64,000 bases of DNA from Patescibacteria group bacterium. GTDB taxonomy: Bacteria > Patescibacteriota > Patescibacteriia > UBA9570 > JAHJKD01. The stretch covers positions 64,381 through 128,380 of the forward strand of contig JAZDOC010000017.1 in the NCBI GenBank assembly GCA_043798935.1, written 5' to 3'. The position numbers were made by a program, and so were the translations under genes. Within the stretch, counting starts at the first letter, position 1. Each line of letters opens with the position of its first letter. Below are positions 32,701-49,301 of this stretch, piece by piece. The notes under the pieces were generated by a model. The model made no database searches. It saw nothing but the letters and a program-made list of their open reading frames with translations, and was not told the DNA's origin.

Positions 32701-34400
32701 GTACCGATCCTGATCAGCCGGACGAGTATTTTCAAACTATGAATAGCGATGGAAATAATAAGTATTTCTTAGATAGTAAGTGTATGGACAATGCCATTGC
32801 TTATGTAATGAATGGTGGTAAAGGCGGCACTACTAGCAGTGGTAATAACCCGTGGAATTATGTTGGTGGCGCTTTAGAAGATTTAAGTGAGGATGGCAAT
32901 GATGCTGTTGGTTTCGAGAGACCTGGTGGATGGGAAGGTTTCGGAAATGAAGATGGTAGCAATACTCATCATGGTGGAGCAATTTACAGTATTTGGTTGG
33001 ATTTTGATGGTGATGGATTCTTAAAAGATATTTATACCATGGTTTATGATGGCGCTGATGGCATTGATGATAGTATTTATGGAGTAGAAATTACGCGTGA
33101 TGCCATGATTTCCATGAAATATAATTTACGCGAAACTTGTGCTTTGGTTGCACCAGTAGTTAGCCCCAGCGGTGATAATTATGCCTGGGCCAACCGTGCC
33201 AGTTGTTTAGGTGCTACTAATTACGATAATGTTGGTTTTTATTGCGATGATACTACCGAGCCTTGGGGTTCAATCGCGCCCATGGACGGATCCATTAATG
33301 CATCTTGGGATAGTATTGATGAATATGATGATACCACAACTAATCCATATAAAATGACAGCTTATGGCCAACAACCGTTTTTCTTCTACGATTCTAAGGA
33401 TAAGGGAGTTGTCACAGCCGGCAAGCCTTATTCATGTATCGGCCAATGTGAAAATAGTTATTGCCAAGGAGATAAATCTTACAATGGTGAGCCTTGCGAC
33501 AGCGCTAATGATTGCGGTGATGGTTTTTGCGTGGGCGCCGGCACGGATATAAACGATAATATCAGTGGCATTGGTTTATATCCGGAAAGCGCGAGCGGTG
33601 ATGATTATAATACTTATCATTTTACAAGTTATGCTGATCAGCTGGATTATGTGGCTGACAATGCACAGAATAAATTAAATAAGTTATTTGCTGATACAAT
33701 GGGGCCGGCTTATTATGTAGATTATGCACCACTTGATGAAATATACGGTATTTATCATCAAGACGCAGATAATGCTTTTTGGGACAAACAATCATTTATA
33801 GACATGCCTGAATGCGTGGGCGACCGCGATACTTCAACCATTAGCGCATCAGCTCTTGATTATTGCGGTGTGCGCCCAACAATTTCTGATATTTATCTAG
33901 ATGGCCACAGCGCTAATACATTAACCGCGACCGGTGTGTCTTACTACTCAATTTATAAAGGCCAAGCCGTAAAGCTTACTTTTAATTCCTCGGCCGATGT
34001 TGAACAAATACCCGTGCATAAAGTAATGATCGATTGGGGTGACGGTCGGGTGACGAACCAAACCTGGGACGCTTTGCCGGGCGAACATGTTTATACACAC
34101 GCTTATGGTTGCGGTCCAGAATATGCCAACTTTATGTATTCGTATAAACCGGGTGAGGCATGCTATTATAAAGGGGCGATCACAATTACCGATAATTGGA
34201 ACTGGTGTTCGGGTGCCACTAAAACCGGCACTTGCAGTGATAACACTTATAAATTCGAGCGCACTTGCAGGGCCGCTAGCGAAACCTGGACCGAAGACGA
34301 CAGCGATTACAGATTCTTTGAAGAAGATGGATCAGACATTATGGCCAATTGCGGCAGTCTGGATTATTTCCCCATGATTATTAAAGTCACTGAAGAATAA
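20772..34400 (+). CDS. Giant 4542-aa secreted/surface Cys-rich protein. It has two von Willebrand factor A domains, a thrombospondin type-3-like Ca-binding repeat block and a C-terminal PKD-like motif.
   Basis: It is a single uninterrupted 13.6 kb ORF with an N-terminal signal/TM (IIISLLLISTVLLSISGIFYPKTTYA). The vWA MIDAS motifs are DIVFVIDNSAG (nt 26892) and DVVFVIDSSSSMSG (nt 30045). The TSP3-like block DRDTDGDGIDIDDDACS...DSDGCLDDEDGDGVSDCVDEC...DTDSNGCIDDTDDDGILDDADTDIDADG spans nt ~27718-27990. The PKD-like motif is IDWGDGRVTNQTWDALPGEHVYTHAYG (nt ~34029). Cysteines are very abundant. Confidence 0.8.
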   Translation: MPTLLKHKKIIISLLLISTVLLSISGIFYPKTTYAFPAEITTQGPDWQIKNIKEVILKKLQDIGYGMYRNAMNAFLGRAAYDLATAIATGGTGQQPLMFTETPGAYVRDLADAAAGAAIETFATDLGFDAAAICHPTNPEFKIKLGLDLEGLFGGESYYKPVCTFSEFQDNWNDFFQDPEFDKFVSAQWDPKVNPLGQALSAIDYVQAQYDDATKQAELERLVSGSFKDLKDLGGHITSPGSLIEKQWGITQETSFEGLKSLGSPLADAANIFSNTLFTKLSKRVQQGLVSITSLNLSSLIAGSSGGTTSGIKAAQATYTSFNQPNFVTTGSYDVLADLAICPEASASTSENCVIGSTMQTAIENKWTVNEFVDYLSEVQGNSEFRFSQDNIGSPEEGITYRGILVLKKYRIVPVGWQLAAEFIRSEKTTQEPTLKQLMDCYDACGAEGSQGECQYILENTTYSPFCKLVDPSWVLKAPEYYCEREAPGSSIVYDEFYDTDGMSQTQETRTIGRAQECVDERGCIQEQVENICTAYGYCSAEKRIYRSDGDVCDAAYASCQSFEVKEEGDVLEGQTVSYLKYDLNYGDCATDPGCKWYCLAQDAGGSYICKDQDTVYNVCDNSDSTYYTAESCTCETQESCWVNAGSGSEDDRYRTCSLGYCAEDSTINLKSDCDAISGTWVGSGATCNLGDNCGETSPYYSHTNEQCYCSVQNSCDIYVDTDGDGYTSGSTSSCIYTYDSGEAINCSLSADCSADNETYSSQGYCKAYDAGDNTCIVQSGAGSCINDLGNTCTFGYCVNDDGGYESDGMLDCADDGFTWLTTACTSDIADVPDASGINKYCTCNLGDADICEVSEGGYSCTTDSGTKQILGTEEEADIVPDAPDLVYNVSINLDHNAAECDSENAGCNLYYRVLSDTNLLYNATFQTIYTAGGDEVDDEFDNQDRFGFYAITGQGCLIDDATAGGCIGWQQHGVSAYAISGNGDTYNHPDIINTYGQSIILPADTTGTGYISNTIDTGYELADRTFIFAYSGASDSSATPKFAVGSADGSYSITIPTSISSDETADYDYYNEDGSIISYSTTYQDYYYTFTFPNSVTDTAITVYIYASTEADVSIDVAQLTEASSWNGSYAGYGENNATYLYGQNVECEAEDIGCKLYTPLDQDDATAIPAQITNPYSTVCGSGSDFSNINCNQCNNIDTELGQEDYYVGCDFYQEMPLTNNFPVASDPTSWTLSDVTERLAVAQRTGYYCADTTISCFPGDPDGYCASPLDCVNNVSLIPDTGLSCSASAVGCEEYTNLDTVSSGGEGLEYYSFIKQCVKDTDDNAYTFHTWEGSDTDGYAMVLYNLKASNIEEDGSVCTDGICPPCTHLDPEVEDPNAECLDSTDPTSLYYVEDCTAVYGTDPDCVKLYDDELNTYYRYASQTVTVSADCLALRNTLDQRVYYSMLDESTTCSAADAGCREYQGSDSGAVEQIVNEVYDENSTDNWTGAISTSNESLFTDDYSLRLDSGTPDDDPSLDATTANTITYNLYTTTTGSDGETVYYSDVDAGATYIATFWAKGDGALNISLNGASLSDTYYFTETGSELGSATSTDRDIAISDSWTYYILGPINLPAGEDTDDAALVLNYTGSTSSSAGYIDNVVIEKNSSQYLVKGSFDSCYDYEGCRRYRDNDRDTNYLKSFKRLCEDSAVNCEAMFNTSNSTNEFTEIFLTTNEYSTDDVVVPYDQIQPVIYNSDETCSSTNKGCTAVALPDINEQTGLISSLDTVYRVLDPDKYSVSLCEDPHLQCKEYYSDYDGTVYFKDPGDRTCDYKTYTNSDGASVYGWFIKDSEATSPNCPKMYEYDDPSQPMGSVCNSNSLTKTGDKCNNDYDCYPDGWYSGMPTPRCISRVEDDIDQDAANGYSLDRNKNFGWVGTCDEQNSGCSEYIDPNSPNIEEAIRNSGFENNVKNNVTGIYYTGGGTEEDLPDYWTPVDNGEPDEETTITTSTITPTSYTVSALSSVIERTISASSPSTGTPRSGGELPGRGEIVGPSSTSTDYDIVFVIDNSAGLEFYDNDLDDGDGSYSDFMDEDDVGCLPQGYGATCESYSDMETYIQNLADTVTGFSSELDSNGLTYKMAVVKASNPSDDWRPEVVQDMTSSVSDVVNTITDLGNNVSGHEEHIYEALNYSRGTYVESGYRFSISYDTGATRIVILLTDAYPSSDTPSSLGDSYTNSHGTSGVSWDSFDERPLKEDIGTGYTLYAIVSSNDRTVDYASTYYNPSGEATTILYTGTVYANEPAYDAIASYTGGAIYEIDTADYNTIFSSITDSIMADRDTDGDGIDIDDDACSTEDASSCDIDSDGCLDDEDGDGVSDCVDECLGSDASDYDTDSNGCIDDTDDDGILDDADTDIDADGIEERDLDEDWSSTTDGAEGTAECFQRDENRFKDGTNSLMMTGDCAIVSDYVPIERNKLYTLEAYFSIEEYGQYEGEDDDKYQDVSIGAYFVKYNEDRNTWEYVEATDAQTYFVADNLTVTPTDYEQSDDFSTDTSDQDLYSKWLKVSGNIGIGSDVEIPEDAEFVRIYLEAKNHGDVLSPWFDKNVWFDSVSFKENDKYFMIDSTVDGTDEREATDEVHTCIDQDTEEEAVTSDGGCVAFRDALKDSQYYVQFVTDGTCNSCSITPNSDSCRGVIDACDTNAILKVQKDRVCDEWVACETAEIIEDSSGSSKYTCFSLQPCNKINDEGKCISWVPKPVYEDLDTQTDITYYTAAGDTDQLYAMQNLTGYVKAGLTWSDYKMCNGGINAGNYCTSNDDCLDVGTCESEVIDLPDEDGGLGMDIIQFVCLGGSKNGEDCASSSAFGLSGDDSLCEGDWDGACNLPLIVEGYYPYGWMYEAGEAGSEYGVELIEYNNFENLYCAGNKIKNRIPCISNSYESEIGSHCWSANLEVYQSDEDPNNDPVEGTSGEDNKSADYYCANSTEWSEFPFSQPAEYTETGWSGYIGNEKVQVKQYDNQYGDNESIDINNVLKASGAMTSAGENIGLKYDLSTNIQNNGYYALSFKGLYTSNYYNANSDKPSSISVGLRHNNIVTDGTDTETQNIDWFIQGAGMADVVFVIDSSSSMSGYMAGVKTAATDLASQLQAVGIGAKFAIVDMDYLSSSLSGPYERGQEYNNVNTLDLDLTDNLSTFGNYIDTYIQAAQAQVDPFAAVQQVINNDLTLVDPLGPLDSSEISYRDASEKIIIVVTDTYDEYVEYDSRDTSSYAGAYDLENNIPYDGYYADFLNSSGFTVYTITTPTMYNYGDYNDLASYSGGAVYDTLSTTTANWTATILDISDRIIANADVFQFSQSLDSFAFGPIKVVEKNPCTDSDCDPVENVASGELVTSDLIFVSNDGMSFEIDDVFLLPVLEVNKNLNPISRSCRAYAKDGDKECVYTEPNGVQHKGWRGYCLEADPENSSRCITWWPLDVIAGESTMYTRERGGYSGRSNVYMCLAAKGYERPGFCSGTDVEGNDYDNLAPGDGVLCQPGSWDDTMGRSNTCGAGGLSRCFYGAEDVISEEYSRDGGFVCDVLLAAMIFECGESYLITGGLTISANPLCTAAITAYSLECLAGSGGDNIDNTYTEKFIHDPGICQVQDDDDLQTDCGAYPSENTWVCSTDTITNQDECEESGATWSLANINVFDSNITYTGKCIYYNNYEDYGDDQDLSATHTYCFYDGNEDGITEIRSTFDCNSDSVCQISPTVTGKQCAPMQCVGTNSTPCSPASCDDRYGALVLKGLQAVANTLDPSGYTAQVLPGLLTHNCEPEEACGQPTTLHNNTNNYGLVTRSWQMYDPYHINLSEKNYGVISKLEANVAEKNINISEIESIDIFLGDAGKGSGGDEEALFWGQGGSDSDGPFKDDNGTITITDLAAGSIPEEGADGSSDGPWSHCMGVDQGSIEGAGCWWWGQYDSRGKADKVGVYTSDGNPINDDSTYDLVYVWGWSDFMKHDSGCNGTGTDPDQPDEYFQTMNSDGNNKYFLDSKCMDNAIAYVMNGGKGGTTSSGNNPWNYVGGALEDLSEDGNDAVGFERPGGWEGFGNEDGSNTHHGGAIYSIWLDFDGDGFLKDIYTMVYDGADGIDDSIYGVEITRDAMISMKYNLRETCALVAPVVSPSGDNYAWANRASCLGATNYDNVGFYCDDTTEPWGSIAPMDGSINASWDSIDEYDDTTTNPYKMTAYGQQPFFFYDSKDKGVVTAGKPYSCIGQCENSYCQGDKSYNGEPCDSANDCGDGFCVGAGTDINDNISGIGLYPESASGDDYNTYHFTSYADQLDYVADNAQNKLNKLFADTMGPAYYVDYAPLDEIYGIYHQDADNAFWDKQSFIDMPECVGDRDTSTISASALDYCGVRPTISDIYLDGHSANTLTATGVSYYSIYKGQAVKLTFNSSADVEQIPVHKVMIDWGDGRVTNQTWDALPGEHVYTHAYGCGPEYANFMYSYKPGEACYYKGAITITDNWNWCSGATKTGTCSDNTYKFERTCRAASETWTEDDSDYRFFEEDGSDIMANCGSLDYFPMIIKVTEE

Positions 34401-34409
34401 AATTTTTAT

Positions 34410-37157
34410 ATGAGAAATTTTTTAGCCAAATTAAAAAAAATATTTATTACAAAGCCGATTTATGCCTTATTCGCTGTTTCTATTATTAGCATCGGCTTAA
34501 TTTTTCCCATATCATCATGGGCTCTGGATCCGGTTGCTTGGGTGGCTGATAGCATAACAGTTGATTTGGCTCGAATTTTAGTTTGGCTGATGTACATGCT
34601 TTTTATTTTTATTGCTGGCCAGCTCGGAACTTGGCTTACTGGCATGATGGTGTGGGCTTCCGGGTTTACGGGTTTTACAAATATCAGCGTGGTCACTGAA
34701 ACTTGGATGGTGGTTAGAGATTTATGTAATCTGCTTTTTATTGTCATGTTATTAATCATTGCATTTGCTACCATACTGCAGATTGAATCCTACTCATACA
34801 AAAAATTACTGCCAAAATTAATAATTGTGGTATTACTTATAAATTTCAGCCAGATGATTTGCGGTCTTGCGGTAGACGCGGCCCAGGTGGTAATGCTTAC
34901 TTTTGTAAATGCTTATAGCGGAGCCGCTAAACAAGGTTTTTATCAATTATTCCAGCTAAAAGATCTAGTAGATTTAGGATGGGATAAAGAAATAGATGCC
35001 GTCAGTACAGTTGCCGGCGCAAATGGCAAGAAAAATTGGCAGAACATGGATTATTTGCTAGCCGTATTTGCTTCGGGCGTAATGCTTACGCTAATCTGCG
35101 TAATCATGATAACAATATTTTTAACTTTAGTTGCCAGAATCGTCTTTATTTGGACGCTTACTATATTGTCTCCATTAGCTTTTGTCGCTTCAATTCTTCC
35201 TATTACTCAAAAATATTATCAGCGTTGGCTGTCTATGTTTGGTCGGTATATTGCGGTTGGTCCACTGCTGGCTTTTTTTGTCTGGTTGGCTTTATTTGTT
35301 GTGGTTAAAGCTGGGGATAGCGGTATATCTAGTCAACTAACTATACCTGGCTCCGGGCTTGTGGACGGTCCTAGTAACCTGACTGTAACTAAAGCGCTTG
35401 AGCCGGATGTTTTTATTAATTTTACCATTGGCTGCATGATGCTAATGATTGGCATTAAACTCGCGCAGGAAATGTCCTCGGAAATTAGCGGCATGGTCAG
35501 TAAAATTGCCGACATGCCGAAAAATGCCGCCAAGTGGTATGCCACCCGGCCGTATGCTTTGGGTAGATGGGGTGTTGGAAAAGCTTGGGGCGGTGTCAAA
35601 AAAGAAGCATTGGCTCGGGCCTCTTTATTGAATTCTCAAATATATGCTAAAACCGGTATTCAACTCAATCCGGCAAAGCGTTTGGAAGGAAAGCTTCGCG
35701 AAATAAACGAGGAAACACACTTAAATGAAGTAAAAGGCGAAATAGGTGGATTAGATCATATTGGAAGAGGCGAAGGCATCAGAGGATGGGCGGGTGCGCC
35801 CGGTTCGTTTTGGCGTTATTCTGGTCCGTTAAAAATGTGGGGGCAAAAAGGCGATCAAAAAATGCAAGAAAAATTAGCTGTTAGAAAAAAAGAACTAGAA
35901 GAAAGTGAAAATTATAAAAAAAATGTTCAAAGCGCAGCTGACGCAAGAGATAGAGTGGTTAATGGACAAGAACCAGTTAAAACAACGGCTCAAAATAATC
36001 TGGAAACACTAGACAGAAAAGCACAGTTAAAAGCAATGATGGATAGCATGAAAAAACTCGATGGCAATATAGATCAAGAAAAAATTATTGGTGCTATTAA
36101 AAGTCTTGGTTTACAGGACTTATATATGAATGGCAATGCATTGAAAGATGACTTTTTATCTGATTTAGAGAATGTTGATACTGAAAGAGAAGAGCAAAGA
36201 ACAAGCATAAGAACTGCTGATGCAGAAATCGGAAAAGCTCATGAACAATACGAAAAGGCTATTGAAGCAGCCAAACCGCAAGAGTTAAAAGATATTAATA
36301 AACAGATGGAAGGACTTTCCTTTGTATTTGATCCACGTAAAATGAAATTGTTGCAAGAGCATACTACTAAAATGTCTGATGGTTATAAAACTATAAATGA
36401 TGGTGAAATAGTTGATATGTATCGTAGTTTAGTGAGAATGGGAAAACATAATGAAGCATTGGCCTTATATTATCATGCTGCTAAAGTGGGCCATGGTAAC
36501 GAAATATTGAAAGCAGAAAAATTGCCTGTTAACGGCGAAGGCTTAGACAAAATGGAAAAAAAGTTTAAAGATGCTGGTTTAGGTGAGCAATATGTAAGAA
36601 GTGTAATGAATATGGCTAGCCAAGCCGCTGAACATAACGGCCATAATGCAATTGCCAGATGGTATACTAGTGAACATGGCCAAATAAAGCGCATCAGCCA
36701 GGAAGAGCACGATTTAATTACTGCAATTGAAGCTAGTAAAGAAGGCATTAGAACCAACTTGAGCAATGGTAATCATATGCGTTGGGGCGAGTATGATGGT
36801 CAAAAGAATTGGTCAATGCAAAATGCAATGTTGCATATGTTAATTCGCGGCGTAGATAAAAATGTAGCTCATAGTATTGAACATGGTCATACGGTTATTG
36901 GAACAAATTTAGTTCATTCATTACGTAAAGAAATGGTAGAAACTGCCGCATTAATTGGTGCGGCAGAAAAAGAAGGCAATGGCCACGTTGTTAAAATTTT
37001 AACTGATATTATAGGAGCCGATAAACTTGCGCAAGTTAGGTCCACTCAGGGTGAAAAAATTGGACAATTAGTCCAAAGTAAGTTAGCAGCTGTTCATAGA
37101 ATAGATCATAGAATAACCCCAGACTCCTCGCATAGGTTTGGCGTTGGCATATCCTAG
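34410..37157 (+). CDS. Polytopic membrane protein of 915 aa, a candidate VirB6/TrbL-like T4SS channel component with a long hydrophilic coiled-coil C-terminal domain.
   Basis: About 8 predicted TM helices lie in the first ~350 aa, followed by ~550 aa that are hydrophilic and coiled-coil rich. The gene starts 10 nt after the giant gene. The assignment rests on topology, not sequence. Confidence 0.45.
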   Translation: MRNFLAKLKKIFITKPIYALFAVSIISIGLIFPISSWALDPVAWVADSITVDLARILVWLMYMLFIFIAGQLGTWLTGMMVWASGFTGFTNISVVTETWMVVRDLCNLLFIVMLLIIAFATILQIESYSYKKLLPKLIIVVLLINFSQMICGLAVDAAQVVMLTFVNAYSGAAKQGFYQLFQLKDLVDLGWDKEIDAVSTVAGANGKKNWQNMDYLLAVFASGVMLTLICVIMITIFLTLVARIVFIWTLTILSPLAFVASILPITQKYYQRWLSMFGRYIAVGPLLAFFVWLALFVVVKAGDSGISSQLTIPGSGLVDGPSNLTVTKALEPDVFINFTIGCMMLMIGIKLAQEMSSEISGMVSKIADMPKNAAKWYATRPYALGRWGVGKAWGGVKKEALARASLLNSQIYAKTGIQLNPAKRLEGKLREINEETHLNEVKGEIGGLDHIGRGEGIRGWAGAPGSFWRYSGPLKMWGQKGDQKMQEKLAVRKKELEESENYKKNVQSAADARDRVVNGQEPVKTTAQNNLETLDRKAQLKAMMDSMKKLDGNIDQEKIIGAIKSLGLQDLYMNGNALKDDFLSDLENVDTEREEQRTSIRTADAEIGKAHEQYEKAIEAAKPQELKDINKQMEGLSFVFDPRKMKLLQEHTTKMSDGYKTINDGEIVDMYRSLVRMGKHNEALALYYHAAKVGHGNEILKAEKLPVNGEGLDKMEKKFKDAGLGEQYVRSVMNMASQAAEHNGHNAIARWYTSEHGQIKRISQEEHDLITAIEASKEGIRTNLSNGNHMRWGEYDGQKNWSMQNAMLHMLIRGVDKNVAHSIEHGHTVIGTNLVHSLRKEMVETAALIGAAEKEGNGHVVKILTDIIGADKLAQVRSTQGEKIGQLVQSKLAAVHRIDHRITPDSSHRFGVGIS

Positions 37158-37174
37158 AATTAATATAAATTTTT

Positions 37175-39046
37175 ATGGCATATTATAATCAACAATATAA
37201 AGATGTAGATTTAACCAGTAGTGAACAAGTACGTAAATATTTACGCGATAATGAAACTTACCTTAAAGAAATGGATGCGGCCATGTGCTTGCAGGCTGAT
37301 ATTTTTTTAAACCGTTATTTTAAAGAGAAGCCAAATTTTGAAAAAGAATATCCGCATGAATATGCTAGCTTAAATGAATTTATAATAGATTGTCGATGGG
37401 TTTCATTGCCGGCAATTAATCAAAAAGAGGTGCTGGATTTATTTACTAATAATATTAATAGCGCTTGGAGTTTGTTTGCTCGATACGATTTTTATATCGA
37501 GGATACAGATTTTTTGGATCAAAAAAGATTGATCGAAAAAAATTTAATGAATTTTATTTCCGGTATTTTTAGTTTTAAAGACCAAGATGCTTTTAAAAAT
37601 AAACTGCAAGACGCTTTGCGTCAGAGTGAACAATTAATTACTATCGAGCCGATTATAGATGGACAATTAAGAATAAAACCAACTTTGGCTCATTGGTTCG
37701 ATCTTTATTTTGAAGCCGTAGGCGTCGGAGCGGCCAATCAATTAAAGATTGCGCAGTTTTATGCCAAAGACAAAAATTTTCAAAAATTATCAGATTCGGA
37801 AAAAGCGAAAATGAAAATGATTTTTCATATTTATAATCAAATGCGTTTTTCCTCGCAAGATTTTATTCATGCGCCCATCAAAGAATATATGGTGAACGAT
37901 GAGGGTGTAATAGGTGTTTGGGAAAACGGCGTTTTTACGCCTTTTCCGTTTGTAGATAATAAACCTAAAAAAATTAATAAAAATCAAGACGATATGTACA
38001 ATGGAGTCCCATCATATAAACCAACCAATGAACCGTTAAGCGTCACCAAAGATATTTTTGGCGATGTCGACGCCAAAGAAATTGAAGATCATAGCCATTC
38101 CGGTTTGCGCAAACAAGCGCCGGTTGATAAAGACGCAATTATTAAATCTATTAAAGAGCAATTTCATCTAACTTTTTCCAGTTCTGAATCCGAAACCAGA
38201 TTTAATAATTTAACCGCCACCTTCGTTCTTGGCATTAGAGACGCCATGGAATATAAAGCCATGCTTACTCGTCCGGCCGATGTGGGTGGGCTTGATTATC
38301 GAATTGAAACAGCCGAAGCCATTACCGATGCCATTAAAAAATTATTAGGCGATAGCTTGCCTCAATCTGCCAGTTCGGTTGCTATGCCCCAGATAACTCC
38401 GACAGTTAAATCAGCGCCAACACCAGAACCAGCCCCTACGCGTCCTTCAATGCCAGCAATGCCCGCATTAACTCCATCATTAGAGCCCGATAAAAAGCCA
38501 CAGCTAAATTTAGCACAGGCTCAGGCCATGATGGATCAAGCCAAACAAATTGCCGCCACCATGAAAAAACCAGAGCCTGTTCAAGTAGAGACAGAGAAAA
38601 AAACTGAAGCCCCGATTGCTAAGCCGGTTTTAGAAACCAGTCAGGCCATACCGCAAGTGCGTCGCTTGGAAACCAATAAACCAATTGTTCAAGATATTAA
38701 AAAGCCCATTGTTAAACCAGTGCTCATGGGTCCGCAGGAAGAACTTGGAACTTTAGATCTTTCCAAATTTAGAAAATTAGCAGAAAATTCCGTGGAAGCA
38801 GCAGAAAAGATTAAGCATAAAATTGAATTATTAGAAGAACAATCTTTTGTTAGTAAATCGCAAGGGATTTTAGCTTTTAAAAATTCACCGCTTAACGCAA
38901 TTTACTTGCGTATCGGAAACACCAGTATCGATGAAGGGCGCTCGGTGCAAGAAGTAATTAATTCAATGACTGTGGCCGGTGAAAAAGTTTTAACCATGGA
39001 AGAGTTCGACGCCATTGCCGACTTAAATAAAAAAATAAGATATTAG
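37175..39046 (+). CDS. Hypothetical soluble protein of 623 aa with a Pro-rich linker.
   Basis: It has no TM segment and no NTPase motifs. A PTPEPAPTRPSMPAMPALTPS linker separates two domains. It sits in the T4SS-like operon. Confidence 0.5.
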   Translation: MAYYNQQYKDVDLTSSEQVRKYLRDNETYLKEMDAAMCLQADIFLNRYFKEKPNFEKEYPHEYASLNEFIIDCRWVSLPAINQKEVLDLFTNNINSAWSLFARYDFYIEDTDFLDQKRLIEKNLMNFISGIFSFKDQDAFKNKLQDALRQSEQLITIEPIIDGQLRIKPTLAHWFDLYFEAVGVGAANQLKIAQFYAKDKNFQKLSDSEKAKMKMIFHIYNQMRFSSQDFIHAPIKEYMVNDEGVIGVWENGVFTPFPFVDNKPKKINKNQDDMYNGVPSYKPTNEPLSVTKDIFGDVDAKEIEDHSHSGLRKQAPVDKDAIIKSIKEQFHLTFSSSESETRFNNLTATFVLGIRDAMEYKAMLTRPADVGGLDYRIETAEAITDAIKKLLGDSLPQSASSVAMPQITPTVKSAPTPEPAPTRPSMPAMPALTPSLEPDKKPQLNLAQAQAMMDQAKQIAATMKKPEPVQVETEKKTEAPIAKPVLETSQAIPQVRRLETNKPIVQDIKKPIVKPVLMGPQEELGTLDLSKFRKLAENSVEAAEKIKHKIELLEEQSFVSKSQGILAFKNSPLNAIYLRIGNTSIDEGRSVQEVINSMTVAGEKVLTMEEFDAIADLNKKIRY

Positions 39047-39527: not shown

Positions 39528-40223
39528 ATGTCTTCGTCAGCTAAAACAGAAATGCAACATAAAACAAAACAAATTCCTTCAACGCAAAAATATTTACCAA
39601 TTGCGGAGATTAAAGACGACCTCGTGGTTTTAAAAGATGGCACCTTGCGCCAGGTGTTGATGGTGTCTTCCATTAACTTTGCTTTAAAAAACGAAGATGA
39701 ACAGCAGGCTATTATTAATGGCTATGTTCAGTTTTTAAATACTTTAGATTATCCCATTGAAATTGTTATTCAATCGCGTAATTTAAACATTGATGCTTAT
39801 ATCAATAAATTAAAAAAACTCGCTAAAGTGCAAACCAACGAACTGCTGAAAATTCAAACCATCGAGTATACCAATTATATTCAACAAATGGTAGAATTAT
39901 CTCAGATCATGGAAAAAAGATTTTTTATTGTTGTACCGTATTCGCCATATTCCAATAAACCAAAAAGTTTCTGGACTCGATTGCAAGAAGTTTTATCTCC
40001 CGGCAGCGTAATTAAATTAAATGAAGAAAAATTTAATAAGTTTAAAGAAGAATTAATTCGTCGTACTTCCATTGTGGCCAGCGGATTAACTTCAATTGGT
40101 TTAAAAGTCGCTCCGCTTGATACCCAGGGTTTAATAGAATTGTATTACCAAGCTTATAATCCGTCGCGGGGCAAGCCAAAAATTCTACCCGATATTAATC
40201 AATTGAAAATAGAAGAAAAATAA
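39528..40223 (+). CDS. VirB4/PrgJ-family T4SS ATPase, N-terminal domain fragment (split gene).
   Basis: 231 aa. The segment DDLVVLKDGTLRQVLMVSSINFALKNEDEQQAIINGYVQFLNTLDYPIEIVIQSRN matches the conserved N-terminus of Gram-positive VirB4 homologs. Its stop TAA (40221-40223) overlaps the next ATG (40223-40225). Confidence 0.65.
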   Translation: MSSSAKTEMQHKTKQIPSTQKYLPIAEIKDDLVVLKDGTLRQVLMVSSINFALKNEDEQQAIINGYVQFLNTLDYPIEIVIQSRNLNIDAYINKLKKLAKVQTNELLKIQTIEYTNYIQQMVELSQIMEKRFFIVVPYSPYSNKPKSFWTRLQEVLSPGSVIKLNEEKFNKFKEELIRRTSIVASGLTSIGLKVAPLDTQGLIELYYQAYNPSRGKPKILPDINQLKIEEK

Positions 40224-42118
40224 TGATTGATTTAAGAGATTCAAAACTACAAGCTCAGAAAAAATTACCGCTGGTCGATGAATCAACCAAAGAACAGCGC
40301 GAACAAGCCCGAGCCCGACAAATAGCCAAAGATCAAGAGGCTAAAGATTTAATTACCGCCAAAAACATTTATGAAAGTGGCGTCACTTACGTATTAGATT
40401 TAATTTCACCGGCCGCTTTAAAAGCCGAACCGCGTTATATAGATTTAGGCGGTAAATATTGCTCTACCATGTTTGTGGTTTCTTACCCGCGTCATATTAA
40501 TGTTGGCTGGTTTGCGCCCATCATTAATTTGAATTTATCGCTCGACATTGCCATGTATTTTTATCCGGTGAAATCAAACATTATTTTAAAACAATTGCGC
40601 AATAAAGTTGGTTCGCTGGAAGCTGAATTAATTTCTGATTCGGAAAAAAGAGCACCGCGTGATCCGGTTAAAGAAACCGCTTTGCGCGATATCGAAGGTT
40701 TGCGCGATAGTTTAACCCAGGGAACCGAAAAGTTTTTTCAATTCGCTTTGTACATTACAATTTATGCGGACGAAAAAAAAGAGCTGGAAGATTTAATGGA
40801 AAAAATGGATTCCATGTTTGGCTCGAAATTAGTGACGGCTAAACGTATTTTTTATCAGGCCGAACAAGGTTTTAATTCCACCCTCCCTTTAGGCATCGAT
40901 GAAATTCAAGTTTATTTCAACATGAATTCTTCACCGTGCGCTTCATCCTTTCCGTTTATTTCTTCGGAATTAACATCAGATAACGGTATTTTATACGGCG
41001 TTAATCGTCATAATAATAGTTTAATATTATTCGATCGTTTCAGTTTACAAAATGCCAACTCTGTGGTTTTCGCTACTTCGGGCGCCGGTAAAAGTTATAC
41101 CATTAAATTGGAAGTTTTGCGTAGTTTGATGATGGGAACCGATGTTATTATTATCGATCCGGAAAATGAATACAAGCATTTAGCCGACGCTGTTGGCGGA
41201 ACTTATATTAATATCTCTTTAAACTCGGATGCTAAAATTAACCCGTTTGATTTACCGCGTCCGGTTGGTGGCGCCGATAAACCGGCCGATATTATTAGAA
41301 CAGCCGTAATTACTTTAAAAGGTTTATTGCGTTTGATGCTGGGAAAAATTAGTGATGCCGAAGATTCTATTATGGACAGAGCTTTGATTGAAACTTACGC
41401 TAAAAAAGATATTACGGCTGATACGGATTTAAGCTTAGGCGTGGAACCGCCAATCATGGCCGACTTTCAGAATATTTTGGAAGGTTTTGAAGGAACGGAA
41501 AATTTAGTTATCAGGTTAAAGAAATTTACCGAGGGTACTTTTTCCGGATTATTCAACAGTCCCACAAACATTGATATGAAAAATCAGCTAGTCACTTTTT
41601 CCGTGCGTGATCTGGAAGACGAATTAAGACCAATCGCTGTTTACAATATTGTCACTTATATTTGGAACGTTGTACGCTCTAAATTAAAACAACGCATGTT
41701 GATTATCGATGAAGCTTGGTGGCTAATGCAGAGCGAAGACAGCGCTAAATTTATTTTTGCCTTGGTAAAACGTTGCCGAAAGTATTATCTGGGTGTCACT
41801 ACAATTACTCAAGACGTAAACGACTTTTTACTTTCTCCTTATGGCAGAGCAATTGTTACCAATTCGGCCATGCAGATTTTATTAAAACAGTCGCCGGCCG
41901 CGATCGACAACATCGCCAAAGTATTTATGTTAACCGAAGGCGAGAAATATTTATTGCTAGAGGGTAATGTGGGCGAAGGCATATTCTTTGCAGGCGAACG
42001 GCACGTAGCCATTAAAGTTGTGGCCTCGCAAACCGAAGATCAAATTGTCACATCCGACCCGCGGCAATTACTGGAAATTGAAGAGTCTAAAAAGGAATTC
42101 GCGGCTCAAAATTCTTAA
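40223..42118 (+). CDS. VirB4/TrbE/PrgJ-family type IV secretion ATPase, C-terminal ATPase portion.
   Basis: 631 aa. It has Walker A VVFATSGAGKSYTI and the VirB4-typical Walker B MLIIDEAWWLM (DEAW), plus C-terminal conserved blocks. Confidence 0.85.
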   Translation: MIDLRDSKLQAQKKLPLVDESTKEQREQARARQIAKDQEAKDLITAKNIYESGVTYVLDLISPAALKAEPRYIDLGGKYCSTMFVVSYPRHINVGWFAPIINLNLSLDIAMYFYPVKSNIILKQLRNKVGSLEAELISDSEKRAPRDPVKETALRDIEGLRDSLTQGTEKFFQFALYITIYADEKKELEDLMEKMDSMFGSKLVTAKRIFYQAEQGFNSTLPLGIDEIQVYFNMNSSPCASSFPFISSELTSDNGILYGVNRHNNSLILFDRFSLQNANSVVFATSGAGKSYTIKLEVLRSLMMGTDVIIIDPENEYKHLADAVGGTYINISLNSDAKINPFDLPRPVGGADKPADIIRTAVITLKGLLRLMLGKISDAEDSIMDRALIETYAKKDITADTDLSLGVEPPIMADFQNILEGFEGTENLVIRLKKFTEGTFSGLFNSPTNIDMKNQLVTFSVRDLEDELRPIAVYNIVTYIWNVVRSKLKQRMLIIDEAWWLMQSEDSAKFIFALVKRCRKYYLGVTTITQDVNDFLLSPYGRAIVTNSAMQILLKQSPAAIDNIAKVFMLTEGEKYLLLEGNVGEGIFFAGERHVAIKVVASQTEDQIVTSDPRQLLEIEESKKEFAAQNS

Positions 42119-43202: not shown

Positions 43203-44471
43203 ATGAATAATCCAAGCTCACAAAATTTACAATCAGAAATGGGAGAGCAAATAAAAGATGCTGTTAAAAGTAATCCTAATTTAAGTGTGGGCGAGGCGAT
43301 TAGCGACTTGTGTCAGCATCCAAAATTTCAAAAATTATTATCAGATTCCGTCATGGCTTTACCGCTTCAATATATTGATGCTGATACATCAGCCGATGTA
43401 AAACGAGCCGGTGCTATGAAAGCCATGGTAGCCACCGCCGTTATGGCTGATGCTGTAGTTCAAGCGCAAAAAGAGCAAGAAATGCAGGATATAGCCTTAG
43501 AAGCTTTAATGGCTCATTTAATGTTGAATGGTTTAAATCCTGAACAAGCTGAAAGTTATGCCCGAAACGCCATGGGTCATCCGGCTACGGATTCTGCACC
43601 CGAGGAAGATCAGAAAGCAGATGAGCATGGTCAAAAACAAGCTCAAGATGCTCAAGCCGTCGCTTCAGATGCCGAAGGCGATGGAGAACAACCAGATGGC
43701 GAAACAGGTGAAGGCGAACCAGACACTCCCCAAGAAACCGTTGAGCCTGGCAAAGAAGATGAAGCCGCCAGAAAATTACAGGACGAAAAAAATAAAGATG
43801 CTCAAAAAAAAGAGGGTGAGCAAGAAGACGGAGATAAAAAAGAAGGCGAAAACCCTGAAGGTGAGGGAAAAGAAGACAAACAACCCGGCCAAGAAGCTGG
43901 TGAGGAACCAGGTGAAGACCAAACCGCTTCACCCGAACAAGAAACGGCCGAGCCGGAAGAATCAGAGGATCAGAATGCTGAGAATCAAGAAGGGGATGAA
44001 GGCCAAGAAGGTGAAAATCAAGGTGCGTCGCCGGAAGAACAATCTCCGGAAGGAGAGTCCCCGGAGGCTAAACCAGAAGAAGAGGCTGACAAAGGCCGTG
44101 AATTAGCTGAAGATAAAAAGGAAGATGAAGATAAAGAAAGTAATATTCCAAGTAAAGATGAATTAGCAAAAGCCGTTAATAAAATAAAAAAAGAAACCGA
44201 ATCAGCTCTAATTGAAGCGTTTCTCAGTGGCCTGCCTGAAAGTTTATTGTTGTTATTAATACCTTTTGTTCCGCCCATAAATATTCCTTTGGGAATTTTA
44301 GCAATTAAGTTTGGTTTTGATGGAAAAATAGATTTTGATATGCCATTGTTAGGAAAAATTAAATTGATGGATTTTGATGCGTTAGAACGTGCAATTATGA
44401 TCTCGTTTGGAGTGGCTTGTTTTTTGGAATATATCATTGGATTTGTATTGTTGCTTTATTTTTTTAATTAA
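43203..44471 (+). CDS. Extremely acidic, low-complexity (E/D/G/K/Q-rich) protein with a C-terminal membrane anchor.
   Basis: 422 aa. Residues ~120-330 are almost entirely E/D/K/G/Q/P repeats (EGDGEQPDGETGEGEPD...). The C-terminal ~80 aa carry two hydrophobic helices (LLLLLIPFVPPINIPLGILAIKF, ISFGVACFLEYIIGFVLLLYFF). The lysine-rich and other ORF-track entries overlapping this gene are out-of-frame low-complexity artefacts. Confidence 0.5.
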   Translation: MNNPSSQNLQSEMGEQIKDAVKSNPNLSVGEAISDLCQHPKFQKLLSDSVMALPLQYIDADTSADVKRAGAMKAMVATAVMADAVVQAQKEQEMQDIALEALMAHLMLNGLNPEQAESYARNAMGHPATDSAPEEDQKADEHGQKQAQDAQAVASDAEGDGEQPDGETGEGEPDTPQETVEPGKEDEAARKLQDEKNKDAQKKEGEQEDGDKKEGENPEGEGKEDKQPGQEAGEEPGEDQTASPEQETAEPEESEDQNAENQEGDEGQEGENQGASPEEQSPEGESPEAKPEEEADKGRELAEDKKEDEDKESNIPSKDELAKAVNKIKKETESALIEAFLSGLPESLLLLLIPFVPPINIPLGILAIKFGFDGKIDFDMPLLGKIKLMDFDALERAIMISFGVACFLEYIIGFVLLLYFFN

Positions 44472-44513: not shown

Positions 44514-45896
44514 ATGAACATGCTTTTAGCGAAAAATAAACATTTATTCATTAGGTTTCTAACAGCGCCTATTTTTTTAATTATACTAAATTTTATTCCG
44601 AAAAGTGCACAAGCTGAAGGCGAAAAGCAATATGTAAAAAATATTGGTTATTTATTAGAAGTTCCTATTCCTACAATATCCAGCGGTGGTGTTTCGCTCG
44701 TAAATAATATTGTTGAATATGTTCAACTGATTTATGAAGTGAGTATCTCTATAATTGCGCCATTAGCAGTAGTGGCTATTATCTATGGCGGTGTTAGAAT
44801 TGCCTCTTCAGCCGGAAATGAACAGTCTATTACATCTGGTAAACAAGTAATTATTTCAGCTATTATTGGTTTATTAATACCATTATTAAGCTATAGCGGT
44901 TTAAAATTAATAAATTCTCAATTAGTTGATTTGCAGAATATACAGGTTGAGAAAATAGTTTACGAACCCGATACAGAACCAATTTATACTTTACCGGATT
45001 GCGGTCGTGATTCACGTTTTGAAGATTGCAAAGATACACTTTGCGGGGAAACTTGTTTTAACGAAGAATTAGGCTTAAGTTGTCGCGGTGAAAAAGCAAA
45101 TTCGGCTAACGCTACGGCAAGTTGTTCAGGAAACATGACAGTTATTGGGTCAGGCCCTGGTCAGTGCGAGTGTTACCCATACGCTACAAGCATAACCGAG
45201 GGAAAAATAAAATATAAGATGCAGAGTGCAGATTGCGTCGATCCGGCAATAATAGCAGTTCAAACTTATGATAAATTATATAAAGACAGAAAAGATCGTG
45301 AATTTATGGTGAATGCAATGACTGCGCTTTCCATTTGTGGTAATAATTTTGAACCTTTCTACAAACAAAGCGATATCATGGCAATTGACGAATATGTTGA
45401 TCTTGTATTTGGCTGGTCACATATGGAATTAATGAATAATATGCTAAATCGAAATATGGCAGCGTCTACTTTGTTTTATATTACTTTAAATAAATCATGG
45501 CATTCTCAAACTAACCATGTATATAGTGATCTTTTTGGATTTTGCGCACAAAGGAACAATTATGTTTTTAAAAGTCATAGCCAGTTAGAAACAACAACAA
45601 ATTGTGAATTTAATCTAAATTGCGGAATTCATCCTAGTTATAACGATGCTAGTGATATTTTTGGTTTATTTTGTATGCCTAACGATTGGTCTCAGCTTTT
45701 ACTTAACGGACACGAATATAAAGCTAAAGACATGTCGTCTTTTAATGCTAGCCAGTTTAAAAAAGCACTTTTTTGGGGTGAATATTTGGTCGGTAAATAT
45801 TATAACGGTACTGCTACAAGTTATGATAATGAGTTTATCATGACTCAAGAAATTGCCAATAAATTGGATAATAATCAATACGAAAGTTTTCACTAA
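44514..45896 (+). CDS. VirB2/TrbC pilin-like N-terminal domain fused to a ~300-aa Cys-rich C-terminal domain.
   Basis: It has a signal peptide and two hydrophobic helices separated by a short loop (IAPLAVVAIIYGGVRIASSAGNEQSITSGKQVIISAIIGLLIPLL). It is paralogous to residues ~60-150 of the 47910-49301 protein. The C-terminal domain has about 14 Cys and no recognised motif. Confidence 0.5.
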   Translation: MNMLLAKNKHLFIRFLTAPIFLIILNFIPKSAQAEGEKQYVKNIGYLLEVPIPTISSGGVSLVNNIVEYVQLIYEVSISIIAPLAVVAIIYGGVRIASSAGNEQSITSGKQVIISAIIGLLIPLLSYSGLKLINSQLVDLQNIQVEKIVYEPDTEPIYTLPDCGRDSRFEDCKDTLCGETCFNEELGLSCRGEKANSANATASCSGNMTVIGSGPGQCECYPYATSITEGKIKYKMQSADCVDPAIIAVQTYDKLYKDRKDREFMVNAMTALSICGNNFEPFYKQSDIMAIDEYVDLVFGWSHMELMNNMLNRNMAASTLFYITLNKSWHSQTNHVYSDLFGFCAQRNNYVFKSHSQLETTTNCEFNLNCGIHPSYNDASDIFGLFCMPNDWSQLLLNGHEYKAKDMSSFNASQFKKALFWGEYLVGKYYNGTATSYDNEFIMTQEIANKLDNNQYESFH

Positions 45897-47137: not shown

Positions 47138-47917
47138 ATGAAAAAAAACAATTTCCATTTATCAGATACTACAGTTTTAATTATTGTTGCTGTAATTGGT
47201 TTATTACTGCTTGTATTTTTTTTATTATTTGGATCAGCACTTGTTCAAGGCATCTTTGCTTTACCGGTTGAAAGTAATAATACCAATACTAATGCATCAC
47301 AAATTGCCAGCTCTACTAATAACGGCGGTTTGGAATTAGGCTATGATCCATTGATTACTATGGTGCCGGAAGATCTCCAGACGCTTGGCAAAAACAGCAA
47401 AGTGTTCATCTCCGATGTTGATCCTTATCTGGGTTCGTCGCAGGCTAAAGCCGTGGTGGTTGTATGGTCGCGCTTCGATAACGAGCAAGCCAAGGAAAGT
47501 GCTGATATTCTTAAGCAAATTTCTAATGAATATGGCGATAAAATTGTAATTATATGGAAAGATTTTATTAATCCTGATAATAATAACGAAATTGGCTATT
47601 CGGCTGCGCTGGCCGCTCATTGTGCTAATGAGCAAGATTTGTTTTGGCCGTATCATGATTTATTATTCGATAATTATGATCATTTAGACGCAAATACTAT
47701 AAGCGAATTAGCGACCACGGTTAATCTAGATATGAATATTTTTAATGAATGTATCGACAATCAATCTACTAAAGCGATTGTTGAAAGCAACTATTATCGC
47801 GGCCTTAGCGCCGGCATTACTAATGCGCCGGCAGTGTTTGTAAATGATGCCATGATAGACGATGCTCTTAATATTGATACTCTTAAAAATGCAATTAATG
47901 ATAAAATAAATGAATAA
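47138..47917 (+). CDS. DsbA-like thioredoxin-fold protein lacking the CxxC active site (predicted catalytically inactive).
   Basis: It has an N-terminal TM and retains the DsbA-family motif AAHCANEQDLFWPYHDLLF. Where the family places the CPxC active site it has VVVWSRFDNEQ, and the protein contains no CxxC. Confidence 0.55.
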   Translation: MKKNNFHLSDTTVLIIVAVIGLLLLVFFLLFGSALVQGIFALPVESNNTNTNASQIASSTNNGGLELGYDPLITMVPEDLQTLGKNSKVFISDVDPYLGSSQAKAVVVVWSRFDNEQAKESADILKQISNEYGDKIVIIWKDFINPDNNNEIGYSAALAAHCANEQDLFWPYHDLLFDNYDHLDANTISELATTVNLDMNIFNECIDNQSTKAIVESNYYRGLSAGITNAPAVFVNDAMIDDALNIDTLKNAINDKINE

Positions 47918-49301
47918 TAAAAAAATAATATCATATTTTTTTGCGCTATATTTTGTAATCAGCGCCTTTATCCCCCTTATTTCTTTAGCCGGGTCCGCAA
48001 CAGCAACAACCCCAACAGCTGCAAAGAGCACGGTACCAGCCGCTTGCACGGATTTTGCGGATAAGGAAGTGGAATGGACTCAGCAAGAAGATATCATGTA
48101 TTTTTTAGAAGTCCCATTATTTGGCAAGCTTTATGTCACTAATTGGAACGATTATCTGGAAACCGTTTATAATTTTTCCATTACTTTAATTCCTATTTTT
48201 TCTTTAGCCGCTATGTTTTACGGCGGTTTTCGCTGGGCCGCATCGGCCGGCAATGAGCAAGCTATTACTAGTGCTAAAAATGTAATTACTTCAGCTATTA
48301 TTGGATTATTAATTGCTTTACTAGGCTATGGTATGGCTGGGCGCATAAATTCGGCATTAGTAGATAATCACGATGTTAGAATATATAAAATTCCAATTGC
48401 CAATCCTTATGATAGTAGCTGTGAACTTCCGCCGGAAAGTAGAGTTGATCTGGCTATTAGTGCAGTAGCGCCTCATCAATTTGCTTCTTCAACTATTAGC
48501 TCTGGTGGATGTCCAAATCTTAAAGTAGCTATCGAAAAAGCTTTGGTTAATTTAAGTGCACTGGCAGTTACAAAAGGCGCGCCTATTGTATTGAGTGGAT
48601 CGGGTTGGCGTTCAGCTGAAAGGCAATGGTATTTCTTTGCCTGTTATTGCAATGCTCAAATTACCGGTGAATGTAAAAGCGGTGCATGCAATGGATGTCA
48701 ATATTGTGAATCTAATAATTGTAATTTAGCGTCTAAGCCGTGTGATGGCGATTCATCTCGGCATCCGCGCGGTTTAGCCGTAGATGTTAAAATTGTTGGA
48801 ACAATTTTAGAAGGGCATGGCACAACCGGTTATAATTGTCTTAGAGGAAGCCATCCAACCGATAAAAGTTTTGGTTTTTCGCTAAGTGGAAAAGATAAAG
48901 CAATTTGGGATGCATTAAAACCAGAAGAACAAAAATCCCTATGTGAGTGGCAAAAAGACTTAAAAGAAGCCATGACTGGCGGTCCGGGAACGCCTTATGA
49001 CACTAACCCTACCGGTTTAAAAGGAATAAAGTCAGAGTGGTGGCATTTTCAATTATCATCGACAACGGCTTGTTTCGAACTCGGTACTTATGGGCTATCT
49101 TGTCCTTGCAAAGATTCAGCTCCTACAAATTGTCCAACCGGCCAACATGCAGTATGTAAGTTGAAAGATAACTCGTATTCTCAAAGCGAAGGTTGGCAAT
49201 GTATGGATTCTTCAATTGGAAGTGAGAAGAAAACAATAACAAAAATGATTAGCGGCAATGGTGTCGCCACTCTTTATAATTTTAGCTGCATAGTAAATTA
49301 G
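47910..49301 (+). CDS. VirB2/TrbC pilin-like N-terminal domain fused to a Cys-rich linker and a LAS-family (M15/VanY-like) zinc peptidase domain.
   Basis: The N-terminal segment YFLEVPLF...AAMFYGGFRWAASAGNEQAITSAKNVITSAIIGLLIALLGYG is paralogous to the 44514 gene. The C-terminal domain has SRHPRGLAVDV (SxHxxGxAxD, nt ~48753) and SEWWHFQ (ExxH, nt ~49030), the zinc-ligand signatures of D-Ala-D-Ala carboxypeptidase / LAS peptidases. Confidence 0.55.
   Translation: MNNKKIISYFFALYFVISAFIPLISLAGSATATTPTAAKSTVPAACTDFADKEVEWTQQEDIMYFLEVPLFGKLYVTNWNDYLETVYNFSITLIPIFSLAAMFYGGFRWAASAGNEQAITSAKNVITSAIIGLLIALLGYGMAGRINSALVDNHDVRIYKIPIANPYDSSCELPPESRVDLAISAVAPHQFASSTISSGGCPNLKVAIEKALVNLSALAVTKGAPIVLSGSGWRSAERQWYFFACYCNAQITGECKSGACNGCQYCESNNCNLASKPCDGDSSRHPRGLAVDVKIVGTILEGHGTTGYNCLRGSHPTDKSFGFSLSGKDKAIWDALKPEEQKSLCEWQKDLKEAMTGGPGTPYDTNPTGLKGIKSEWWHFQLSSTTACFELGTYGLSCPCKDSAPTNCPTGQHAVCKLKDNSYSQSEGWQCMDSSIGSEKKTITKMISGNGVATLYNFSCIVN

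Follow-up and report, generated by a model that had tools for sequence, protein, structure and literature searches.

The VirB4 motor of a chromosomal type IV secretion locus in Patescibacteria is very probably encoded by two adjacent genes

The division of VirB4 between two genes in the type IV secretion systems (T4SS) of Patescibacteria (CPR) is already known from the work of Quinonero-Coronel et al. (2025, Microb Genom; PMC12102498). No T4SS component was found there more often in Patescibacteria than TrsD, and 1,664 of its 2,272 homologues adjoin virB4. The protein was described as remotely homologous to the N-terminus of VirB4 and as essential in Ca. S. epibionticum ML1, and a cultivated relative was reported to require its T4SS to grow epibiotically. 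No function was given to TrsD, and the TrsD homologues of Gracilibacteria do not adjoin virB4. For the homology of TrsD and VirB4 the authors cite the 2014 paper of Guglielmini, from whose main text the name 'TrsD' is absent, so that the claim in the literature rests on PMC12102498. Structural work has shown VirB3 to wrap the N-terminal domain (NTD) of VirB4 (residues 15–400) and, in R388, to be bound by six 'central' VirB4 subunits only (PMC9259494).

Comparable gene arrangements are found on plasmids. The staphylococcal conjugative plasmids pSK41 and pGO1, of the pGO1 subclass of MPF_FATA, encode a VirB3-like protein, a 227-aa TrsD and a 672-aa ATPase in succession (TrsC–TrsD–TrsE, equivalent to TraC–TraD–TraE), whilst in Paenibacillus pSC2 PrgI is followed by proteins of 332 aa and 641 aa. 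Single-chain forms are represented among Gram-positive systems by the CD1110 family and by PrgJ of pCF10, a protein of 796 aa encoded directly after the PrgI gene, and elsewhere by the 823-aa TrwK/VirB4 of R388, which belongs to a diderm system and for which structures have been solved (PDB 7O41, 8RTB).

The locus described here (Table 1) shows no substantive difference from the Patescibacteria TrsD–VirB4 pairs. It comes from the same phylum, its Patescibacteria VirB4 and TrsD homologues are adjacent, and the order VirB3/PrgI, TrsD-like protein, VirB4 is the same. It is chromosomal, with housekeeping genes for LeuRS, KsgA, PNPase, RecG and a Clp ATPase on its flanks, and, as in most of the published clusters, Pfam searches detected neither a relaxase nor a VirD4 domain within the window, that is, the whole 64-kb stretch of DNA analysed. 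The VirB3-like PrgI gene ends 4 nt before ORF1 and places ORF2 in a T4SS setting. A first-pass annotation had recognised two ORFs totalling 862 aa that meet in a 1-nt stop/start overlap, and both the ORF list and the sequence bear this out.

Table 1. Positions and assignments of the features of the two-gene virB4 locus
Feature	Coordinates	Strand	Assignment and evidence
PrgI-family (VirB3-like) small membrane protein, 155 aa	39056..39523	+	Pfam PF12666 PrgI, 8.8e-8, 33 bits against a cutoff of 27
ORF1, 231 aa, ATG start	39528..40223	+	ORF list; TrsD-like soluble protein, first half of the VirB4 NTD
TAATG junction	40221..40225	+	ORF1 stop TAA 40221-40223, ORF2 start ATG 40223-40225, 1-nt overlap
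ORF2, 631 aa, ATG start	40223..42118	+	ORF list; second half of the VirB4 NTD plus ATPase domain
ORF2 aa 1-47, charged, poorly conserved N-terminal tail	40223..40363	+	First ~37 columns of the family consensus nearly all 'x'
ORF2 aa ~48-249, second half of the VirB4 NTD	40364..40969	+	hhalign to PrgJ, NCBIfam CD1110, weak TraC_F_IV
ORF2 aa ~250-631, VirB4 RecA-like ATPase domain	40970..42118	+	4AG5, TrwK, P-loop_TraG, Walker motifs

The assignment of ORF2 as the motor is secure. Residues 250–610 match the C-terminal domain of VirB4 from T. pseudethanolicus (4AG5) at an E-value of 1e-50, Pfam P-loop_TraG is matched at 1.1e-29, and the region equivalent to TrwK 446–735 is aligned at 2e-5. The protein scores 353.5 bits against the NCBIfam profile for CD1110-family VirB4, above the family cutoff of 325. 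Walker A reads ATSGAGKS (aa 284–291, 41072–41095) and Walker B reads LIIDE (aa 493–497, 41699–41713), the latter inside the matched string LIIDEAW (41699–41719); A284-x4-G289-K290-S291 and I495-D496-E497 are invariant in 56 homologues. The ATPase domain first proposed for the 631-aa ORF is thus present, but it is preceded by the second half of the NTD, residues ~48–250, part of which also gives a weak match to Pfam TraC_F_IV (ORF2 aa 124–223 on profile positions 274–373 of 375). The ORF2 polypeptide does not hold a complete NTD, and the missing part is supplied by ORF1. An AF2 model of ORF2 reached a pLDDT of 58, from a shallow alignment of sequences 70–86% identical, and was left out of the fold search.

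ORF1 is more divergent. It resembles the TrsD/TraD family in being a soluble protein of ~200–230 aa encoded between a VirB3-like gene and an N-terminally short VirB4, yet it scores only 27 bits against the 200-bit cutoff of the NCBIfam TrsD/TraD model NF041427 (E 3.4e-6), and on sequence grounds it is a distant relative of that family, outside the curated subfamily. The NCBIfam Mbov_0397 VirB4 profile is matched at 7e-11 (positions 96–265 of 894) and the CD1110 VirB4 profile at 1.8e-6 (positions 2–119 of 752). Similarity to any single characterised VirB4 is weak at the sequence level: a comparison of the ORF1 profile with PrgJ alone falls short of significance (E 0.14), although the aligned segment lies at the expected N-terminal position; neither the single sequence nor a 120-sequence profile matched any PDB chain up to E = 10; and no match was found in a local copy of Pfam. 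A precomputed assignment of ORF1 to PF26593 is given in the protein database. An AF2 model with a pLDDT of 80 was searched against the PDB with Foldseek, and the top 14 matches were all TrwK/VirB4, with probabilities of 0.92–1.0 (E 2e-3 to 4e-2, TM 0.28–0.46, matched TrwK residues not reported); the next matches were unrelated and did not exceed 0.30. Identity of ORF1 to TrwK is ~10–13%. The folded core spans aa ~20–215, and the last ~16 aa are variable and of low confidence. The most conserved columns of the family lie in the motif KDGTLRQVLMVSSINFALKNEDEQQAI (ORF1 residues 36–62, nt 39633–39713), in which D37, N50, F51, L53, K54, E58 and Q59 are invariant across 120 homologues. The proposal that the 231-aa ORF matches the N-terminal domain of VirB4 therefore stands as to homology, which the NCBIfam profiles, the fused relatives and the fold all confirm, and has to be narrowed to the first half of that domain.

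Taken side by side, the two pieces cover successive, non-overlapping stretches of single-chain VirB4 profiles in the same order. On the CD1110 profile ORF1 20–135 occupies positions 2–119 and ORF2 41–597 occupies 172–734 of 752; on the Mbov_0397 profile ORF1 11–172 occupies 96–265 and ORF2 5–608 occupies 258–892. In an alignment to full-length VirB4, suggested as a check in the first-pass annotation, hhalign places ORF2 59–593 on PrgJ 226–774 (probability 99.7). The first ~225 residues of a single-chain VirB4 are therefore absent from ORF2 and at this locus form a separate protein. Furthermore, ORF2 residue 275/279 corresponds to TrwK 446, which leaves ~215 NTD residues missing, the size of the ORF1 core. 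Relatives in which the two parts are fused keep the same order. The rare 898-aa protein P0213, present on 4 contigs, resembles ORF1 over 13–231 and ORF2 over 321–890, with a P/A-rich linker (232–320) between them, and a 1344-aa CDS on a Rubrobacter plasmid carries both pieces in a single frame. By these alignments the break lies in the middle of the NTD and not at the NTD/ATPase boundary. The ORF2 tail does not align to P0213, where the equivalent region is the P/A-rich linker, and it is the remnant of an inter-module linker; the break site itself is a variable linker, probably disordered. The pSK41 pair is broken at a similar point, since ORF2 residue 58 corresponds to residue 35 of TrsE and the two break points are thus equal within ~30 residues. 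Sequence similarity between the two systems is low (TrsD and ORF1, 31% over 75 aa, aligned over aa 25–97; TrsE and ORF2, 24%), and pSK41, by contrast, is conjugative and carries both a relaxase and a VirD4.

Two abutting ORFs whose combined length is that of one VirB4 could in principle mark a gene recently broken by a nonsense or frameshift mutation, a pseudogene in the making, but a comparison of related loci leaves this a negligible probability. In 79 of 79 evaluable loci, drawn from independent assemblies of many projects and with ORF1 identities of 48–67%, ORF1 has its stop and ORF2 its own separate ATG at the same place in the protein, whilst the stop codons, spacers and frames differ from one locus to another. 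The ORF2 frame relative to ORF1 is spread evenly over 0, +1 and +2 (22/28/29 loci), and the two genes are separated by −29 to +474 nt (median 9 nt). Both ORFs are full length and highly conserved. Among 2141 homologues of ORF1 the best 120 are all of 218–252 aa, the best 120 homologues of ORF2 are all of 613–693 aa, and a fused form occurs only once among the best 150 ORF1 representatives at 50% identity. In almost every related locus the gene immediately before the ORF1 homologue encodes a PrgI homologue. The whole lineage carries the split as a fixed trait, of which the present locus is an ordinary example.

The same comparison bears on a sequencing or assembly error as the source of the frame change at 40221–40225. 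An A5 run at 40216–40220 directly precedes the ORF1 stop, and homopolymer-type A runs are error-prone in some sequencing chemistries. However, the independent assemblies share the two-gene structure, the NCBI record, a MAG entry labelled 'Patescibacteria group bacterium', likewise has these two separate proteins (MFH0819055.1 and MFH0819056.1), and removal of one base would yield no canonical protein, because the residues on either side belong to the variable linker. The chance of such an error is therefore minimal. Of the three explanations originally offered, an authentic two-piece VirB4 is the sole survivor; recent mutation and misassembly are both excluded by the independently different junctions of the 79 loci and by the uniform lengths of the homologues.

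A further possibility is recoding, in which a programmed −1 frameshift or stop read-through would yield a fused 862-aa VirB4 besides the two separate proteins. The junction reads GAAGAAAAATAATGATTG; ORF2 lies in the −1 frame relative to ORF1, from 40199 onwards that frame is free of stop codons, and there is an A-rich tract just before the ORF1 stop. Against this, ORF1 contains no X XXY YYZ heptamer in its frame, no stable RNA structure was found at or downstream of the junction (fold z = 0.37), and the even distribution of frames together with spacers of up to 474 nt in the relatives means that there is no conserved recoding signal. Recoding is thus very improbable.

Translational coupling was also proposed for the pair. 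The overlap is real, but it recurs in just one of the 79 related loci (L067). Coupling is accordingly not a conserved feature of the system, in which the spacer is short in the majority of relatives and runs to hundreds of bases in others, and TAATG is just one local variant of tight gene packing. No plus-strand terminator was found at the junction, and promoter-like matches within the operon are about as frequent as expected by chance (47 observed, 41.5 ± 6.9 expected). Every gene of the operon lacks a recognisable Shine–Dalgarno sequence, so the sequence cannot tell whether translation of ORF2 needs termination–reinitiation at TAATG.

Together this evidence makes it very probable that the VirB4 motor of the chromosomal Patescibacteria T4SS consists of two separate, co-transcribed genes, ORF1 providing the first half of the NTD and ORF2 the second half and the ATPase, with the break in a variable linker. 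We infer the physical reassembly, the docking of VirB3 on ORF1 and the stoichiometry of the complex along the following lines. Non-covalent association of the two polypeptides would restore the whole NTD of VirB4; the PrgI/VirB3-like membrane protein encoded upstream would bind this rebuilt domain and tether the ATPase oligomer to the membrane; and ATP hydrolysis by ORF2 would then drive assembly of the T4SS or transport.

ORF1 may instead descend from the VirB4 N-terminus and now act as a separate accessory or adaptor, for example a sub-stoichiometric, regulatory or substrate-related one, rather than rebuilding the NTD at 1:1. ORF1 diverges faster than ORF2 (48–67% identity against mostly 55–81% at the same loci, a few short-contig partial matches of ORF2 falling as low as 37%), a difference suggesting that it may have acquired a partly independent role. 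Many ORF1 homologues carry long disordered C-terminal tails of 100–200 aa, and the widest spacers indicate that expression of the two genes can be uncoupled. TrsD has no assigned function and lies apart from virB4 in Gracilibacteria (PMC12102498), and the restriction of VirB3 to the central VirB4 subunits of R388 makes an unequal stoichiometry conceivable. Nevertheless, the region supplied by ORF1 is missing from ORF2, fused forms keep both parts in canonical order, and the two genes usually lie next to each other with little space between them, all of which make an accessory role improbable. A related proposal, by analogy, is that the separation of the VirB3-docking half from the motor is functional and not neutral, the TrsD-like piece being loaded on a subset of the ATPases, as the R388 parallel would suggest, or being regulated or exchanged. 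Such a functional split seems unlikely. If it were true, the disordered tails of the homologues could recruit partners, and the TrsD-like protein would be a dissociable assembly or regulatory subunit of an essential Patescibacteria T4SS.

Retaining the reading of a two-gene motor, what is added to PMC12102498 is the complementarity of the two pieces and the location of the break point, both drawn from alignments. The TrsD-like protein would thus be more than a remote homologue: it would supply the N-terminal half of the NTD that ORF2 lacks. For CPR and pGO1/pIP501-type systems, structural and genetic work should therefore co-express both proteins, ideally with PrgI. The gain is mainly one of annotation: the products deposited as 'hypothetical protein' (231 aa) and 'DUF87 domain-containing protein' (631 aa) together make up the VirB4 motor of a T4SS, and this reading should keep automated pipelines from calling the pair a broken gene. 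Elsewhere in the window, the ORF at 44514–45896 has a weak T4SS pilin-like N-terminus (2.1e-5, under the cutoff).

VirB4 is encoded here by two adjacent genes, ORF1, a TrsD-like protein, and ORF2, a VirB4-type ATPase. Their coordinates and junction sequence, GAAGAAAAATAATGATTG, agree with the first-pass annotation, the TAA at 40221-40223 overlapping the ATG at 40223-40225. ORF2 carries the VirB4 ATPase domain, as had been proposed, at residues ~250-610. It matches 4AG5 (E 1e-50) and TrwK 446-735 (2e-5) in the PDB, P-loop_TraG in Pfam (1e-29) and the CD1110-family VirB4 model of NCBIfam (353.5 bits, exceeding the cutoff of 325), and its Walker A (residues 284-291) and Walker B (493-497) motifs are invariant.

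Searches of the local Pfam copy and, by sequence, of the PDB gave no match for ORF1. In NCBIfam, residues 11-172 match an N-terminal stretch of Mbov_0397, the Mycoplasma ICE VirB4 model (profile 96-265 of 894, 7e-11) and residues 20-135 the N-terminus of CD1110 (profile 2-119 of 752, 1.8e-6), with a TrsD/TraD match (3.4e-6) well under that model's cutoff. The motif singled out earlier, residues 36-62, falls where conservation across the family is highest. An AlphaFold2 model built from an alignment of 120 homologues (mean pLDDT 80) has a folded core at residues ~20-215, and all of its 14 best Foldseek matches in the PDB are R388 TrwK/VirB4 chains (probability 0.92-1.0, E 2e-3 to 4e-2, TM-score 0.28-0.46); those ranked below are unrelated (probability ≤0.30). 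The profile and fold matches thus identify ORF1 as a VirB4 N-terminal module, as first suggested, albeit of distant similarity.

ORF2 covers profile positions 172-734 of CD1110 and 258-892 of Mbov_0397, in both models exactly the portion downstream of that covered by ORF1. PrgJ of pCF10, a single chain of 796 aa encoded immediately after PrgI, is matched over residues 226-774 by a profile built from ORF2 homologues (probability 99.7). TrwK residue 446 corresponds to ORF2 residue ~275-279 and the TrwK N-terminal domain (NTD) spans residues 15-400 (PMC9259494), so that just ~230 NTD residues lie in ORF2. The ~200-residue core of ORF1 supplies the NTD portion missing from ORF2, and the ORFs are complementary pieces rather than a duplicate plus a complete VirB4. 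Fused relatives confirm the order of the parts. In P0213, an 898-aa protein found on four contigs, the segment aligning with ORF1 is residues 13-231 and that aligning with ORF2 is 321-890, joined by a Pro/Ala-rich low-complexity linker (232-320), whilst a Rubrobacter plasmid carries both parts in one frame of a single 1344-aa CDS, with a gap of about 60 residues. The last ~16 residues of ORF1 are variable and of low model confidence, ORF2 shows no conservation over its first ~37-47 residues, and ORF1 homologues of 300-443 aa have long P/A/Q/T-rich tails; the split point is therefore a flexible linker in mid-NTD, all folded residues being retained.

Three explanations had been offered for the split: an authentic two-piece VirB4, a recent nonsense mutation or an assembly error. 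The best 120 homologues of ORF1 (53-100% identity) are all 218-252 aa and the best 120 of ORF2 all 613-693 aa, with one fused form among the best 150 ORF1 representatives (50% clustering). Of 86 related loci fetched, 6 from genomes and 80 from metagenomes, 79 were evaluable. Every one of the 79 has a separate stop codon closing the ORF1 homologue (61 TAA, 13 TAG, 5 TGA) and an ATG opening the ORF2 homologue. The intervening gap ranges from -29 to +474 nt (median 9; overlap in 6 loci, 0-10 nt in 40, >50 nt in 15), and ORF2 lies in relative frame 0, +1 or +2 in 22, 28 and 29 loci. The separate stops and starts with differing gaps and frames exclude a recent nonsense mutation, and the recurrent two-gene structure with uniform homologue lengths excludes an assembly error. 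Conserved programmed frameshifting is likewise excluded by the varied frames and gaps; at the window junction no in-frame slippery heptamer or terminator was found, and RNA structure is unremarkable (z = 0.37). The two-piece VirB4 is thus authentic, and the split is an old, fixed, lineage-wide feature.

The proposed translational coupling fared less well. The TAATG overlap is real and could couple translation here, but such coupling can be neither demonstrated nor regarded as conserved, since only one other related locus, L067, shares the overlap and no Shine-Dalgarno sequence is recognisable within 25 nt upstream of six operon starts (34410, 37175, 39056, 39528, 40223 and 42142), whose leaders are all A/T-rich. 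In several relatives (L016, L033, L049, L072, L078 and L090) a repeat-rich or palindromic spacer of 70-330 nt follows the ORF1 homologue, and in L056 the spacer (3703-4176) is a 474-nt insert of coding-like appearance. Insertions can therefore be accommodated at the junction, and in such loci ORF2 must be translated independently. Locus L002 (CAZHYJ010000012.1; 55% identity to ORF1, 69% to ORF2) is a typical CPR PrgI-TrsD-VirB4 locus from a MAG labelled 'uncultured Gammaproteobacteria bacterium', probably a binning error.

The central VirB4 subunits of R388 have VirB3 wrapped around their NTD (PMC9259494). On this model, and in view of the conserved gene order PrgI-ORF1-ORF2, ORF1 and ORF2 would reassemble one VirB4 NTD, which PrgI, a VirB3-like membrane protein, would tether to the membrane, the ORF2 ATPase then powering the T4SS machine. 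The main rival, that the TrsD-like piece now acts with some independence, as an adaptor or a regulatory subunit, seems improbable, though its faster divergence (48-67% identity against mostly 55-81% for ORF2 in the same loci), disordered tails and occasional separation from virB4 are compatible with such a role.

The two-gene arrangement has counterparts in known systems. Staphylococcal pSK41 has the same gene order, with trsC (VirB3-like), trsD (227 aa) and trsE (672 aa); TrsE residue 35 aligns with ORF2 residue 58, placing the split at the same point. Paenibacillus pSC2 encodes PrgI followed by 332- and 641-aa proteins, and in a Clostridium sporogenes plasmid the protein encoded after PrgI is a 257-aa 'TraC family protein'. 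Quinonero-Coronel et al. 2025 (PMC12102498) reported 2,272 TrsD homologues, 1,664 of them virB4-associated, TrsD being otherwise confined to the pGO1 subclass of MPF_FATA; no function was assigned, and for Ca. S. epibionticum ML1 they list TrsD as essential. The lineage-wide TrsD-VirB4 arrangement is therefore already described; added here are the explicit complementarity of the pieces, the location and character of the break point, and the junction statistics.

Features of the T4SS locus and its surroundings (window coordinates)
Feature	Position	Strand	Remarks
Upstream flank			PNPase, ComM-like ATPase, LeuRS, Sua5, KsgA
IS200-like Y1 transposase ORF	15476-16042	+	1e-8; immediately upstream of leuS
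Operon-like block	~19981-49301	+	includes PrgI, ORF1, ORF2, several small or low-complexity ORFs
Giant ORF	20772-34400	+	4542 aa; ends 9 nt before 915-aa ORF, directly upstream of T4SS genes
915-aa ORF	34410-37157	+	N-terminal half hydrophobic, multi-pass-looking
623-aa ORF	37175-39046	+	before PrgI
ORF1	39528-40223	+	231 aa
ORF2	40223-42118	+	631 aa
422-aa protein	43203-44471	+	very acidic E/D/G/K/Q low-complexity centre, hydrophobic C-terminus
460-aa protein	44514-45896	+	N-terminal ~60-125 aa weakly T4SS-pilin-like
DsbA-like thioredoxin	within 47138-49301	+	3.9e-18
463-aa ORF	within 47138-49301	+	weak VanY peptidase match, 9.8e-4
Downstream flank			RecG, tRNAs, Clp ATPase

The T4SS locus is chromosomal, and the 64-kb window yielded neither a relaxase nor a VirD4 domain. 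The sole domain match of the giant ORF is a VWA domain (residues ~3092-3292, 3.8e-8); within the secretion locus, its product may serve as a surface component or adhesin. The 915- and 623-aa ORFs match nothing in Pfam or NCBIfam; by their position before PrgI they are candidates for the VirB6-like channel protein and a further T4SS component. The N-terminus of the 460-aa protein scores just under the cutoff for T4SS_pilin (PF18895, 2.1e-5) and matches a Mycoplasma ICE pilin-like model (5e-3), which fits the VirB2-like pilins reportedly present in CPR T4SS loci. The thioredoxin and the 463-aa ORF, possibly a cell-wall hydrolase in place of VirB1, end the plus-strand block. ORFs on both strands overlapping the 422-aa protein (43558-44106, 43585-43932 and 44018-44437) look like artefacts of repetitive composition. 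ORF1 and ORF2 correspond exactly to NCBI proteins MFH0819055.1 (hypothetical) and MFH0819056.1 (DUF87) of a Patescibacteria MAG.
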